Shown here in pieces: positions 55,382 to 60,486 of a stretch of DNA of 64,000 bases (positions are counted from its first letter, which is position 1; every line of letters starts with the position of its first letter). The stretch is from NCBI GenBank assembly GCA_963703285.1, contig OY969807.1, positions 1,216,001-1,280,000 on the forward strand, read 5' to 3'. The notes under the pieces were generated by a model. The model saw only the letters and a program-made list of their open reading frames with translations, ran no database searches and had not been told where the DNA came from. Position numbers and translations under genes: made by a program. The stretch comes from an uncultured Nitrososphaerota archaeon. GTDB taxonomy: Archaea; Thermoproteota; Nitrososphaeria; Nitrososphaerales; Gagatemarchaeaceae.

Positions 55382-55854
55382 GACTGGACCTCCTTGGGTA
55401 GCGCCGCGACGCCCGTCCTCGCTATGTCGAGGACGCTGGTCTGCAGGCTGGAGACGAAGTCGTCGATCTGCTTTGCGCTCCCGACGATCTCGACGACCGC
55501 GGAGCGGGCGGAGGAGTCGACGATGCGGCAGGAGTTCATCTTCTGTAGGTCGGCCAGCGTCATCTTGTCGGTGTTGATTCTCACGAGCGCGAGCTCCCTG
55601 GCCGTCACCTCCTCCGGGGCGTAGGTCCGGGCCTCGAGGACGTCGATCACCTTCATCAGCTGCCTGGCGACGTGCTCCACCGCGGCGTCGTCGCCCTCGA
55701 GCGTCATCGTCATCCGGACGTCGTCGCCCCCGTTGGTCACGCCGACGGTCATCCCGTCGATGTTCAGGCGCATCAGGCGCACGAGGTGGACAACGCGGAA
55801 GAGGGTGCCCGGCTTGTTCTCGACGAGCGTCGAGAGGATCTTCGATGACCTCAA
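55378..55854 (-). CDS. ilvN: Acetolactate synthase small (regulatory) subunit
   Basis: LVENKPGTL, QL.K.IDV, RELALV, ARTG..AL; TTG overlaps the ilvB stop. Confidence 0.92.
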   Translation of the reverse strand: MRSSKILSTLVENKPGTLFRVVHLVRLMRLNIDGMTVGVTNGGDDVRMTMTLEGDDAAVEHVARQLMKVIDVLEARTYAPEEVTARELALVRINTDKMTLADLQKMNSCRIVDSSARSAVVEIVGSAKQIDDFVSSLQTSVLDIARTGVAALPKEVQS

Positions 55855-57581
55855 AAGATCGACAGCTCCTTTGGGGTGCCGTAGACCGTGTCCTTGATCG
55901 CCTTGCCTGGGGGCATGAACGGGAAGACGTCCTCCTCGTGCGAGACGGGGACCTCTATTAGCGTGGGGGAGTCTGACCTGATGCCTTCCCTCAGCGCCTT
56001 GCCGAACTCCTGGAGCGAGCCGACGCGGGTGCCCTGCACTCCGTAGGAAGCCGCGAGCTTCACGAAGTCGGGGACGTTCTGGAACTTTATCCCGATGAAG
56101 TGCCTGTTGTACATGAGGCGCTGCCACTGCTCGACCATCCCGAGCGACCTGTCGTTCATCACCACGGCCACGACCGGGATATGCTCCTCGACCGCCGTCG
56201 CGAGGGCCTGTTCTGTCATCACGAACGACCCGTCGCCGTCGAAGTCGACGACGGGGACGCCGGGCGCGGCCACCTTGGCGCCGAGCGCAGCGGGGAGCCC
56301 GAAACCCATCGTGCCGAGGCCGGTGGACGTCACCCAGGTCCTCGGCCTCAGTACCCGGTAGTGTATCTCGCACCACATCTGATGCCTGCCGACGCCCGTC
56401 GTGAGGATGGCTTCCGGTGGCAGGATCTCCCTCATCAGCTTGACTATGCGGGGACTGGAGAGCTCGCTGTACGAGTCCTTGTAGGCCGGGATTCCCTTCA
56501 TCTCCTCGCGGACGAGGTCGAGCCTCGTCAGCCACGCGTTGTCCCCCGACCTCTTCACCATGCGCCGGACCAGGGCGTCGAGGAGCATGGTGAGGACGAC
56601 GTTGGCGTCACCGAGGATGCTCAGCGTCACGAGCTTGTTCTTGTTGAACTCGGTCGGGTCGGCGTCGATGTGGATGATCTTGGCGTCGGGCGCGAACTCG
56701 CTGAAGGTGCCCGTGGAGCGGTCGGAGAAGCGCACGCCCACGGCGAGGAGGACGTCGCACTCGCCGACGAGCTTGTTCGCCTCGGCTCTCCCGTGCATCC
56801 CGATGGGTCCCACGGAGAGGGGATGGTCCTCGGGGAAGGTCCCCTTCCCCTGGAGGGTCGTGATCACCGGCGCCATGAGGAACTCGGCTAGGGCCCTGAA
56901 CTGCATGGACGCGTCGGCGATCCTGATGCCTCCCCCGCCGAAGAGGAGGGGCCTCTGCGCCTTCACGAGCATGTCGGCGGCCCTCTCGATGTCCTGGGCG
57001 TCGACGGCGACGCTGGGCCTGTAGCCCCTAATCTGTATCGACTCGGGGAACGTGATCTCGGCCTCCTCCTGCTGGACGTCCTTCGGCACGTCGAGGAGGA
57101 CCGGGCCCGGCCTGCCGGTCTGGGCGATGAAGAAGCTCTTCTTGACGGCCGAGGGTATCTCGGCGGCGGAGAGGGGCTGCAGGGTGTACTTCGTGACCGG
57201 AGTGAGCACCCCGACGACGTCCGTCTCCTGGAACCCGCTCTTGCCCGTCATGCTCTTGGAGACCTGGCCCGTGATGGCGACGACCGGCGATGAGTCGGCG
57301 AACGCGGTCGCTATCCCGGTGACGAGGTTCGTGGCCCCCGGACCCGAGGTCGCCGAGCAGACGCCGGCCCTCCTCGAGACCCTCCCGTAGGCGTCCGCCA
57401 TGTGCGCCCCAATTTGCTCGTGCCTCACGAGCACGTGCTTGATCTTCGAATCCCACAGGGCGTCGTAGAAGGGGAGGTTGGCGCCTCCCGGCATCCCGAA
57501 GATGTACTCTACCTTCTCCTTCTCGAGGGCCTCCACGATGGCCCTTGCGCCGGACATTTTTTCAGGCATTGTAATCGCCAC
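55851..57581 (-). CDS. ilvB: Acetolactate synthase large subunit
   Basis: RHEQ, TSGPGATN, FQE.D, GMHG, GTMGFGLPAA, GDGSF; start at GTG 57581 or ATG 57569. Confidence 0.96.
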   Translation of the reverse strand: MAITMPEKMSGARAIVEALEKEKVEYIFGMPGGANLPFYDALWDSKIKHVLVRHEQIGAHMADAYGRVSRRAGVCSATSGPGATNLVTGIATAFADSSPVVAITGQVSKSMTGKSGFQETDVVGVLTPVTKYTLQPLSAAEIPSAVKKSFFIAQTGRPGPVLLDVPKDVQQEEAEITFPESIQIRGYRPSVAVDAQDIERAADMLVKAQRPLLFGGGGIRIADASMQFRALAEFLMAPVITTLQGKGTFPEDHPLSVGPIGMHGRAEANKLVGECDVLLAVGVRFSDRSTGTFSEFAPDAKIIHIDADPTEFNKNKLVTLSILGDANVVLTMLLDALVRRMVKRSGDNAWLTRLDLVREEMKGIPAYKDSYSELSSPRIVKLMREILPPEAILTTGVGRHQMWCEIHYRVLRPRTWVTSTGLGTMGFGLPAALGAKVAAPGVPVVDFDGDGSFVMTEQALATAVEEHIPVVAVVMNDRSLGMVEQWQRLMYNRHFIGIKFQNVPDFVKLAASYGVQGTRVGSLQEFGKALREGIRSDSPTLIEVPVSHEEDVFPFMPPGKAIKDTVYGTPKELSIF

Positions 57582-57624
57582 TCTCCAATAGAATCTCCTC
57601 GCTTGAAATCTCGAGCGAGGTGCT

Positions 57625-57690
57625 CTAGACTAAAACAATCAACGCTACAAGGACGAGAACCGCCGAAGTAGTAGCGTTGCCGCGCTGCAT
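57625..57690 (-). CDS. Putative Val/Leu/Ile-rich leader peptide (uORF) of the ilv-leu operon
   Basis: ATG...TAG encoding MQRGNATTSAVLVLVALIVLV; ends 43 nt before ilvB; starts at the predicted TSS. Confidence 0.7.
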   Translation of the reverse strand: MQRGNATTSAVLVLVALIVLV

Positions 57691-57710
57691 TGTGAAGAGG
57701 TAGGGGGGCG

Positions 57711-57720
57711 TTATATTTAA
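57711..57720 (-). promoter_or_regulatory. TATA box of the ilv-leu operon
   Basis: Minus strand TTAAATATAA, 21-30 nt upstream of the uORF ATG (leaderless spacing). Confidence 0.7.
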
Positions 57721-57794
57721 GATTTGAAAAAGTGGTTTCTAGACCGATTACTAGCGCCGCGACAACCTCTGAGGGAGCCGTTTCCCCGGTCGCG

Positions 57795-58628
57795 CTAGGG
57801 TGGCAGGGGAGGGTCGATGCGGATCTGGAAGACGTCGGGCCAGTCCTTGCCCGTGACGTAGAGGCGGTGGTTGGATGCGTCGTAGGCTATGCCGTTCAGG
57901 ACGTCGTTGGAGTCGCAGTGGCAGCCACTCAGGCTCTGGAGCCCGGCGAGGTCCAACCAGGCGGTGACCTCCCCCGTCGATGCGTTGATGACCGCTATCC
58001 TGTTCGTGAGCCAGACGTTGGCGAAGATGCTCCCGTTGATGTAGTCGAGGCTGTTGAGGTTGTCAATCTGTGTGCTCCCGTCGTGCACGGTGACCTCGCC
58101 CGTCCTCTGGAACGTCTGCGGGTTGAGGAAGTAGAGGGTGTCCGACCCGTCGCTCATGATGAGCTGTGTCCCGTTGTAGGTGAGGCCCCACCCCTGGTCG
58201 GGAAAGGTGAAGTTCCCGAGCGGCTGGAACGTCTCCAGGCTGTAGACGAACCCGATGTGCGTCGTGTATGTGAGCTGGACGATCTCGTCGCCGAAGATCG
58301 CGATGCCCTCCCCGAAGTACTGGCTGGGGAGATTGTGGATCTGGATGACCTGTCCCGTCGTTATGTTCTCCCGGCGGAGCGAGGAGTCCCCATTAAGACC
58401 GGTGCTCTCGTACAGGGTCCCGTTGTAGTAGACCAGGCCCTCCGTGAACGCTCCCGTGTCGTGGGGGTACGTCCCGACGACCTCGTAGGAGTAGACAGGG
58501 GTGGTCGATGTGCTCGTGGTAGGTGGGCCGGAGGAAGCCGGAGCGCTGCGGTCTAGGACGTAGTAGGTCGCCGCGAGCAAGAGGCACGCGAGCACCAAGG
58601 CGAGCGCGACCCTCCAAGTACTTCCCAT
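57795..58628 (-). CDS. Glutaminyl-peptide cyclotransferase (membrane-anchored)
   Basis: YPHD..AFTEGL, ESTG..G.S, FGEGI, GWGL, VLNGIAYD, VTGK.W. Confidence 0.92.
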   Translation of the reverse strand: MGSTWRVALALVLACLLLAATYYVLDRSAPASSGPPTTSTSTTPVYSYEVVGTYPHDTGAFTEGLVYYNGTLYESTGLNGDSSLRRENITTGQVIQIHNLPSQYFGEGIAIFGDEIVQLTYTTHIGFVYSLETFQPLGNFTFPDQGWGLTYNGTQLIMSDGSDTLYFLNPQTFQRTGEVTVHDGSTQIDNLNSLDYINGSIFANVWLTNRIAVINASTGEVTAWLDLAGLQSLSGCHCDSNDVLNGIAYDASNHRLYVTGKDWPDVFQIRIDPPLPP

Positions 58629-58731
58629 GGCTGTCCTCATGCCAGGGCGGGAGTCCGGCGGTGCTCCTCAATTATGCGTTTTCGAGCTGCCCTCCGGCAA
58701 CAGATATGAACGCCAGGACGGGGGACGCCCC

Positions 58732-59943
58732 GTGGCCTCAGGCTCGCGGCCAGCGTCCGTCCTTGGACCGGTCTACATCTACACCACTCTGTCGTGGGCC
58801 GCGTACGCGCTGGTCGCCGTCTCGCTCCGATTCCGGTTCGAGCAGCTGGGGCTCAGCGTGGTCGCCTACGGGACGGTCGTCGCCGTCGTCTCCCTAGGGT
58901 TGCTCTCGACAGAGACGGTCTGGGGAGCCTTCGCCCATCGGATAGCCAGCAGGGGCTGGATTCTGGGGCTCGGGGCGGTGGTAGCCCTGATTCTGGTCGC
59001 CGTCGGGGTCTCCAACTCCACCCCGACCTTCGCGCTCTCGATGGGCCTCCTTGGAGCGATGGTGATATTCCCCGTCCCGCTGCTCCGGTGGCTCGCCCTC
59101 GTAGCGGGAGGACCCGGGACGGGTGGCAGCGGCATCGCCAAGTACTCGGTCTCTTCGGGTGCTGGCACGATAATCGGAGCGGCGATCGGGCCTGCGGCCT
59201 TCGAGGCGATCGGGTTCTTTTGGCTCTCGGCCGCCGCCGCCGGCCTCTGGATCTTCTCCATGGCATTCTTGGTCCTGCTGCCGTGGACGCACCTTGAGGC
59301 GCCCGTCCATCGCGTCCCGCTGGCGCGTCAGGTGCGGCAGATTTCGACACCATACTTCGCGGCGGTCGCGGCGCTCGTGGCCCTGTTCTGGCTCTGCTAC
59401 ACTCTCACCTCGAACTTTCTACAGTACTACTCGGTCGACCTGTTCGGAGGAACCCCGGCGGACTCCGGCTATGTGATAGCGGCGATGCGCGCGATGGCCC
59501 TCGCGGCGGGGCTGCTGCTCGGGAGGGTCGTCGATAGGTGGGGGCCGGCCAGGTCGGCGCCGTTCGGGTTCCTTCTTATCGCGGCGGGGACGCTGGGGAC
59601 GCTCGCCTCGCATACCTACGCTGAGATGACGGTCGCCACGATGGTCTTCGCGGTGGGTGTCGGGTGGCTCAGCGTCACGCTGCTCCCGCTCTCCCTCATG
59701 GCCATACCGCGCTCGCTCCAGGGGACCGCAGTCGGGCTGTTCGGCTCGTTCGAGGACCTGGGCCAGTTCGTGGGGCCTATCCTCATCGGGGCCATCTACG
59801 CCGCCTTCGGTCCCACGTCGATCTTCGTCCCCGTGGCGGCCGTCGCAACGGCGGGAGCCCTGGGGGCCGCGGCGCTGGCGCCCCATGCCGTCAGTCGTCC
59901 CCCGGGCGCAGGGTCACAGGAGGCGAGCGACCGGGTTATTTAA
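58732..59943 (+). CDS. MFS transporter
   Basis: ~12 hydrophobic helices; GRVVDRWG motif; GTG start chosen. Confidence 0.85.
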   Translation: MASGSRPASVLGPVYIYTTLSWAAYALVAVSLRFRFEQLGLSVVAYGTVVAVVSLGLLSTETVWGAFAHRIASRGWILGLGAVVALILVAVGVSNSTPTFALSMGLLGAMVIFPVPLLRWLALVAGGPGTGGSGIAKYSVSSGAGTIIGAAIGPAAFEAIGFFWLSAAAAGLWIFSMAFLVLLPWTHLEAPVHRVPLARQVRQISTPYFAAVAALVALFWLCYTLTSNFLQYYSVDLFGGTPADSGYVIAAMRAMALAAGLLLGRVVDRWGPARSAPFGFLLIAAGTLGTLASHTYAEMTVATMVFAVGVGWLSVTLLPLSLMAIPRSLQGTAVGLFGSFEDLGQFVGPILIGAIYAAFGPTSIFVPVAAVATAGALGAAALAPHAVSRPPGAGSQEASDRVI

Positions 59944-60054: not shown

Positions 60055-60486
60055 ATGATCAACCCCTATGAGATGATATCCAAGAGCGCACTCCCGGCGT
60101 TCAGGGCTATGGTCTCGAAGAGGCTCACAGACAACTACGACCTGACGCAGCAGGAGGTGGCAGGCAGGCTGGGAGTGACGCAGGCCTCGATCAGCAACTA
60201 CGCCAGAAAGGCCAGGGGGGTCATGATCAACCTCGAGGTCGACCCGAACCTCGCGAGGGCCGCGGACCAGGTGGCCGAGGTCCTTTCGTCGGAGGACCCC
60301 AACCAGAGGGAGGTCCTCCGGATGATGACCGAGGTCTGCGACTACATCAGGTTCAACCACGTGATGTGCAGGCTGCACGAGGACCTGGAACCGGGCTTCA
60401 TTGTCGAGGGATGCTACGCCTGTGTGGGCGGTCTCCCGATAGACAGCAGCCAGATAAAGCTCAAAACCCGCGCCCTGGGACAGTAG
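60055..60486 (+). CDS. HTH transcriptional regulator (COG2522-like, with CxxH/CxxC)
   Basis: LPAFRA, LTQQEVAGRLGVTQASISNY...RG, C..H...C..C. Confidence 0.82.
   Translation: MINPYEMISKSALPAFRAMVSKRLTDNYDLTQQEVAGRLGVTQASISNYARKARGVMINLEVDPNLARAADQVAEVLSSEDPNQREVLRMMTEVCDYIRFNHVMCRLHEDLEPGFIVEGCYACVGGLPIDSSQIKLKTRALGQ

Follow-up and report, generated by a model that had tools for sequence, protein, structure and literature searches.

A candidate leader-peptide attenuator for isoleucine, leucine, and valine supply upstream of the ilvB operon of a Nitrososphaerales archaeon

A short open reading frame (ORF) that ends in a run of isoleucine, leucine, and valine (ILV) codons between two RNA hairpins, just upstream of ilvB in a Gagatemarchaeum-like Nitrososphaerales archaeon, is on balance probably a leader-peptide attenuator sensing the supply of these three amino acids for ilvB-ilvN-leuA-leuC; the ribosome stalling, the polarity, and the output of this device are what we infer from its sequence and its conservation. 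Ribosome-mediated attenuation is a textbook bacterial mechanism and depends on coupled transcription and translation. In the enterobacterial attenuators (ilvBN, ilvGMEDA, leu, and trp), a short ORF is rich in codons for the end product, and the ribosome translating it senses charged tRNA. The archaeal leader works like such a bacterial leader-peptide attenuator, yet in the window studied here (the whole 64,000-nucleotide stretch of DNA that was analysed) it misses two of the defining features, the U-tract and the antiterminator. In the literature available without subscription, we found no published description of leader-peptide attenuation in Archaea, and neither 'attenuat' nor 'leader peptide' occurs in the text of a cross-domain termination review from 2026 (PMC13675443). 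A conserved candidate before ilvB would allow a test of whether archaea use translation to control transcription, of whether a hairpin without a U-tract stops archaeal RNA polymerase, and of the involvement of aCPSF1/FttA. With its two hairpins, its missing antiterminator, and its apparently leaderless start, the design also poses a polarity puzzle that is open to experiment.

The elements of the leader and the start of the operon are as follows, roughly in the order in which they are transcribed, with pair probabilities calculated for the RNA between the leader ATG and the ilvB ATG:

57713..57720, minus strand: TATA-like box TTAAATAT, with 30 nt from its first T to the leader ATG
57625..57690, minus strand: leader ORF of 21 codons plus TAG, MQRGNATTSAVLVLVALIVLV, unannotated
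57671..57679, minus strand: helix A 5' strand CAACGCUAC, pair probability 0.70 in the free RNA
57640..57648, minus strand: helix A 3' strand GUAGCGUUG, encoding Val-Ala-Leu within the control run, pairing with CAACGCUAC in a perfect 9 bp
57628..57660, minus strand: control-codon run GUU CUC GUC CUU GUA GCG UUG AUU GUU UUA GUC
57631..57642, minus strand: UUGAUUGUUUUA, four rare ILV codons, overlapping the end of the helix A 3' strand and reaching into the spacer before helix B
57614..57620, minus strand: helix B 5' strand CCUCGCU, beginning 4 nt past the stop, pair probability 0.79 in the free RNA
57597..57603, minus strand: helix B 3' strand AGCGAGG, pairing with CCUCGCU
57648..57658 and 57594..57605, minus strand: helix C, UCUCGUCCUUG with CAAGCGAGGAGA, pair probability 0.08 in the free RNA
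57581..57586, minus strand: GGAGAG, the likely Shine-Dalgarno (SD) sequence of ilvB, 11 nt from its ATG
55851..57569, minus strand: ilvB, acetolactate synthase large subunit (TIGR00118, 682.7 bits against a cut-off of 538)

The leader stop lies 55 nt before the ilvB ATG (57569), and behind ilvB come the genes ilvN, leuA, and one for a leuC-family large subunit (NCBIfam TIGR00119, NF002085, and NF001614). The nearest named relatives of this ilvB are those of Candidatus Gagatemarchaeum stordalenia (92% identity) and of Nitrososphaerales or Thaumarchaeota MAGs; the small-subunit rRNA of the genome fits the archaeal model, and the 3' end of its 16S rRNA is GGAUCACCUCCU. At the ribosome-binding position of ilvB, the relatives carry GGUGA or GGAGG. 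Two other readings of the region were tried and rejected. A UUG-started mini-ORF between helix B and ilvB was dropped on inspection by eye because its UUG is part of a conserved ribosome-binding motif (UUGGUGA/UUGGAGAG) and its stop is dictated by ilvB codons, and a frameshift or stop-codon read-through stimulated by helix B was dropped for want of a conserved slippery site.

Since the leader ATG lies 30 nt past the TTAAATAT box, the leader mRNA is probably leaderless, with the 5' end of the transcript at or next to that ATG. Across 16 loci of the genus, the spacing from TATA-like box to ATG is 30 nt in 12, 29 nt in one, and 31 nt in three. The genome contains just 97 copies of the motif TTAAATA, whose distances to the starts of ORFs of at least 100 amino acids peak at 29-33 nt. 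A search of the literature for transcription-start maps of Nitrososphaera found nothing useful.

Isoleucine, leucine, and valine account for 10 of the 21 leader codons and for seven of the last eight residues, and their codons are unusual. Seven of the 10 are rare, compared with 1.53 expected (P = 1.4e-4), where rare ILV codons are A/U-ending synonyms used at about 10% or less; usage among synonyms in the genome, estimated from crude gene calls (stop-to-stop ORFs with a GC3 filter), is 6.5% for GUU, 8.8% for CUU, 6.7% for GUA, 6.1% for UUG, 10.1% for AUU, and 0.6% for UUA. The rarest of them, UUA, makes up 0.6% of the leucine codons of the genome and occupies position -2 at 12 of the family's 17 loci, the codons of the relatives being scored by the usage of the window's genome as a proxy and the relatives being kin rather than independent samples. 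A rough tRNA census (aragorn, introns allowed) counted 42 tRNAs, including one tRNA-Leu(UAA). In a genome of 60.6% G+C, the rare codons render the stretch between helices A and B U-rich: the first three bases of UUGAUUGUUUUA (UUG) end the 3' strand of helix A, and the remainder opens a U-rich single-stranded spacer that runs up to helix B.

The first-pass annotation of this DNA, made from sequence alone, had described the three helices of the leader on the minus strand, with helix A as a perfect 9-bp pairing that encloses the first control codons and with no oligo-U after helix B. All three lie at the positions given, helix A is a perfect 9 bp, and oligo-U is absent after helix B. Helix A joins the 5' part of the ORF to the beginning of the ILV run, and perfect helices of at least 9 bp arise in 18 of 1,000 dinucleotide shuffles of the 124-nt leader; the fold energy of the leader as a whole is unremarkable against shuffles (z = -1.44). 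Helix B can be extended by UAGAG/UUCUA across the leader stop codon, and the bases that follow it (AGAUUCUAUUGG) hold no U run longer than two.

The ILV-rich ORF and the hairpin behind it recur across the order. We detected ilvB in 37 of 41 near relatives and in 336 of 401 genomes sampled from Nitrososphaerales, the latter tally including five genomes flagged as unpublished, none of whose sequence was used. The 350 nt before ilvB were then compared at 100 loci, 30 from near relatives and 70 spread over families. An ORF with at least six ILV among its last eight residues is present at 51 of 100 loci in the sense direction, compared with 4 of 100 in antisense and 7 of 100 in shuffled sequence. 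With a looser criterion (at least five ILV among the last eight residues, and a stop 25-100 nt before ilvB), an ILV-rich ORF precedes ilvB at 77 of 100 loci and in 17 of 18 families, the families that are weak for it being f9 (three of nine), f15 (six of 16), and f2 (none of one). At 59 of these 77 loci the ORF is followed by a hairpin of -9 kcal/mol or lower that starts between -9 and +5 nt from the end of the stop codon. Measured against dinucleotide shuffles, the post-stop hairpins of the 77 loci have a mean z of -1.72, with z below -2 at 34 of 77 loci and a family median below zero in 14 of 17 families. The stems differ from family to family (CCUCGC/GCGAGG in the window, and CCCACA/UGUGGG, CCUGCA/UGCAGG, CCCAGC/GCUGGG, and GCCUAC/GUAGGU elsewhere), so it is structure and position that are kept, not sequence. 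In families f4, f11, and f12, runs of T4-T6 stand immediately past the hairpin and give it a terminator-like shape; the median in the window's genus is three T in the 10 nt after the hairpin.

Helix A is general too. It is retained in at least eight of 10 sequences of the window's subgroup of the genus. A second subgroup, whose ORFs have 27 codons, shows an equivalent helix in eight of eight sequences; there AUGCAAC, at the very 5' end, pairs with GUUGCRU in the ILV run, and the resulting 5' hairpin takes in the start codon. Helix B is retained in all eight sequences of this second subgroup and, as judged by eye, in that of the window, its core CCUCGC/GCGAGG being kept through the genus. One subgroup translates the CAACGC of the helix A 5' strand within GGC-AAC-GCU and the other within AUG-CAA-CGC, and this difference in frame points to a constraint on the RNA rather than on the peptide. 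Across the order, complementarity of the helix A type, which joins the ORF's 5' part to its last 10 sense codons, has a mean z of -1.49 against shuffles (n = 75) and is below zero in 15 of 17 families, with the window at -1.91; in f4, f7, f11, and f13, the ILV codons themselves form the 3' strand of this pairing. Insertions and deletions within the ORF are all multiples of three (+3 in L006, +3 in L032, and -3 in L015), and those after the stop are not. Covariation in helices A and B within the genus is almost nil because the helix arms hardly vary. The pairings proposed from the single sequence are kept in homologs as far as helices A and B are concerned, but not for helix C, which stays at chance level, and they come with almost no covariation in the genus. 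The other part of that proposal, an ORF with ILV control codons before ilvB at which the position of the ribosome is decisive, gains support from the conservation of the ORF and its hairpins.

Two loci outside the order carry a comparable leader. In a member of Marsarchaeota (L123) and one of Bathyarchaeota (L124), with one locus each, ORFs ending in ...IILIVLGLLVVLV and ...LIALLIVVLVLLV about 50-75 nt before ilvB show an ILV run, a stop, and then directly a GC hairpin, so the design extends beyond Nitrososphaerales. The element is not universal in archaea, since in a member of Halobacteria (L130) and in Methanoliparum (L132) an upstream coding region closely precedes ilvB without an ILV leader. 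As a separate observation, four loci of family f9 (L025, L037, L040, and L041) have a leaderless-looking ORF in which a run of Met codons (for example, ...CMMRMMMVCM...) replaces the ILV run before ilvB, with no clear hairpin after its stop.

Folding the leader under a ribosome suggests how its state could depend on translation. We modelled the ribosome as 28 unpaired nucleotides that span -15 to +12 relative to the first base of the codon in the A site, an assumed, generic footprint. Over 59 loci, the mean pair probability of the post-stop hairpin is 0.68 in the free RNA and drops to 0.06 when the stop occupies the A site; it is 0.15, 0.29, and 0.51 for the last sense codon and the two before it, and 0.56-0.69 (about 0.65) further upstream. 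In the window, the core of helix B remains at least 0.98 paired for A-site positions 15-20 of the ORF and falls to zero only at codon 21 and the stop. When it decodes the codons of UUGAUUGUUUUA, the modelled ribosome covers the helix A 3' strand and the spacer, and the core of helix B is still paired. No antiterminator, that is, no mutually exclusive helix formed upon stalling, was found among these loci, where the hairpin stays at about 0.65 for stalls at least five codons before the stop; nor does the freed 5' segment of the ORF show complementarity to the arms of helix B above that of shuffles (mean z = -0.02 and -0.06, n = 55). In the model, then, the state of the leader RNA is set by ribosome position alone, with no third competing helix.

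We propose the following scheme. With no ribosome on the leader, or after its release, helices A and B would both be folded; a ribosome held on the rare ILV codons would open helix A and cover the U-rich spacer; and one on the last codon or the stop would melt the 5' strand of helix B too. The leader would be OFF when folded and free of ribosomes, a state that a ribosome held at the ORF's end would relieve. That the switch polarity cannot be read from the sequence, as the first-pass annotation held, is also our view, and we take the stalled state as ON because the operon makes isoleucine, leucine, and valine. The OFF state would most likely be premature transcription termination at or just past helix B, either hairpin-dependent or factor-assisted. 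We favour termination as the output because of the T4-T6 runs in f4, f11, and f12, because of a hairpin precedent in Haloferax volcanii, and because the genome has an aCPSF1/FttA gene (TIGR03675, 788.4 bits against a cut-off of 580.2). In the GC-rich H. volcanii, a hairpin without a T stretch gave termination of 59% of reporter transcripts, an AGATC motif of 11-27%, and a T stretch of 95% (PMC7237163). At 250 convergent gene ends of the window's genome, there is no excess of hairpins (mean minimum free energy -16.75 kcal/mol, compared with -16.58 kcal/mol in shuffled sequence), and T runs of at least five occur at six of the 250; helix B is therefore not shown to be of a terminator type used by this organism, a comparison that carries little weight because the gene calls are crude.

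The geometry of the model constrains how a ribosome could bring about the ON state. Since stalls at codons 15-20 leave helix B intact and only a ribosome on codon 21 or the stop removes it, a fast ribosome closely coupled to the polymerase would block helix B as well. Such occlusion would lead to read-through under ample amino-acid supply, the reverse of the polarity expected of a biosynthetic operon; direct occlusion alone thus predicts a response of the wrong sign, unless the polymerase pauses past helix B until the ribosome is released. One variant of the attenuator would give the right polarity and is hypothetical: a ribosome held on the rare ILV codons would hide the U-rich spacer from aCPSF1/FttA, and transcription would continue into ilvB; with the ribosome gone, the spacer and a polymerase paused at the hairpin would be open to aCPSF1/FttA, whose action is linked to cleavage. 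In the model, the U-rich spacer of rare codons does sit where a stalled ribosome would cover it. As a mechanism shared across Nitrososphaerales, Marsarchaeota, and Bathyarchaeia, an antiterminator-free archaeal counterpart of Rho-dependent control of the tna type, we regard this masking of the factor as unlikely; if true, it would be leader-peptide attenuation in Archaea that needs no antiterminator.

The same layout could act on translation instead, by translational attenuation of the kind seen with ermC/cat. The folded leader would lower initiation at ilvB and ribosomes dwelling on the ILV codons would open it, a steady-state arrangement that needs no coupling to the polymerase and has the right polarity without any argument from timing. 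It matches the leaderless poly-Cys short ORFs of mycobacteria, which also have their control codons at the 3' end and lie upstream of a biosynthetic operon, and whose control tract forms base pairs with the SD of the gene that follows (bioRxiv 10.1101/834739). The hairpin of f4, f11, and f12 ends only a few nucleotides before the SD, and in the second subgroup of the genus (L010-L016 and L020; alignment A2, columns 127-147) a weak local hairpin, GGUUUCA/UGAAUCC, takes in part of the GGUGA motif of ilvB and shows one or two compensatory changes. Against this, and unlike the mycobacterial case, the archaeal leader shows neither pairing to the SD nor a modelled change in its accessibility. The modelled accessibility of the SD and start is 0.46 in the free RNA and 0.47 and 0.48 in the stalled states (n = 77), which also speaks against ilvB initiation as the output suggested at first; neither the control tract nor the freed 5' segment of the ORF is complementary to the SD and start region of ilvB (mean z = -0.12, n = 55); and helix B of the window ends 27 nt ahead of the ATG. 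Control of initiation at ilvB is in our estimate rather improbable.

A sensor of the opposite polarity follows from the geometry of the model alone, in which helix B is lost only at the last codon or the stop and is intact for stalls upstream: a ribosome close to the polymerase would block helix B and allow read-through, and a lagging or stalled one would let it fold and stop transcription. This would resemble pyrBI of Escherichia coli, where UTP is sensed by polymerase pausing and the leader ORF extends across a hairpin with a U-tract behind it. The likeness is that the translating ribosome physically prevents the hairpin and that no antiterminator is needed; unlike in pyrBI, the archaeal ORF ends shortly ahead of its hairpin, and tRNA charging would be what is sensed. 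Such a sensor is decidedly improbable, however, for it would shut off synthesis of isoleucine, leucine, and valine precisely when they are scarce, and it leaves unexplained the selection of codons for the products of the pathway in their rare forms.

The switch proposed in the first-pass annotation, in which either helix B or helix C forms according to where the ribosome sits, with an SD-like GAGGAG being exposed or aCPSF1/FttA gaining access as the output, fares worse and now appears very unlikely. The complementary segments are present, and in the model helix C reaches a pair probability of 0.44 when the 5' strand of helix B is taken up by a ribosome on codon 21 or the stop, the only occupancy under which it forms. 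However, helix C is discontinuous (4 bp, a 2-nt bulge, and 5 bp with one G.U pair), and complementarity of its type is at chance level against shuffles in the window (z = -0.62), in the genus (median z = 0.04, n = 17), and over the wider sample (mean z = -0.39, n = 55 loci). The best fold with helix C forced has -32.5 kcal/mol and is 5.5 kcal/mol worse than that with helices A and B (-38.0 kcal/mol), and the 5' strand of helix C consists of control codons, which a ribosome stalled on them would cover. The GAGGAG is present (57600..57595), but its distance to the ilvB ATG is 25 nt and, among the loci of the genus, it is shared only by the window and L007, so it is not the ribosome-binding site of ilvB. 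It is just as hard to credit that the product of the ORF is a small hydrophobic peptide with a function, or that the hairpins merely stabilise the mRNA at its 5' end with no amino-acid sensing: the C-terminus is hydrophobic and the start-codon hairpin of the second subgroup could protect the RNA, but only the ILV run and its placement before the hairpin are conserved between families and the remaining peptide is not, the last 10 residues are 69% ILV (a figure inflated by the choice of loci for ILV content) and 9% F+M+W+A+G+C, and the ORF is always tied to ilvB, with no second copy found in the genome.

Read as a ribosome-dependent attenuator, the leader shares with the enterobacterial ilv, leu, and trp systems an ORF of end-product codons, surrounding hairpins, and the use of the ribosome as a sensor of charged tRNA. 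It differs from them in several ways. First, it has no antiterminator helix. Second, it has its control codons within the first hairpin's 3' strand rather than in a 'region 1' that pairs downstream. Third, its second hairpin begins at the stop codon, so a terminating ribosome would melt it. Finally, it has no U-tract in the window's genus, a leaderless-looking mRNA, an archaeal TATA-type promoter, and no match to an Rfam leader. A cmscan of positions 57000-58200 with E values up to 10 gave no match to Leu_leader or related families and two chance-level hits to C/D-box snoRNA families (sR47 and sR28). The predicted leaderless leader peptides of Deinococcus deserti likewise combine transcription starting at the leader start codon with a peptide rich in the cognate amino acid, the archaeal start being predicted from the promoter; unlike the archaeal leader, that system is bacterial and was interpreted by a classical terminator/antiterminator scheme (PMC4007540).

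Two scans of the genome for further leaders left the ilvB leader as the only convincing one: the first sought a TATA box followed by a short ORF and gave 37 candidates, and the second sought short ORFs with ILV endings followed by a hairpin and gave 22 matches, eight of them intergenic. The surroundings of the leader offer some minor observations. In the window, the stop of the upstream gene (ORF 57795..58640) is directly followed by a GC hairpin, GCGCGAC...GUCGCGGCGC, without a T-tract (57750..57797, minus strand). In six relatives (L002, L005, L007, L009, L015, and L020), a gene divergent from the ilvB leader begins MIHPYEIVAKSALPAFRAMVSKR... and has a TATA-like box of its own, GTTATATTTAAGT. 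As judged by eye, this gene is like ORF 60055..60486 of the window (plus strand; MINPYEMISKSALPAFRAMVSKRL...), which had no match in an NCBIfam search and is separated from the ilvB leader by ORFs 57795..58640 (minus strand) and 58627..59943 (plus strand). The divergent gene could be a regulator tied to the ilvB operon.
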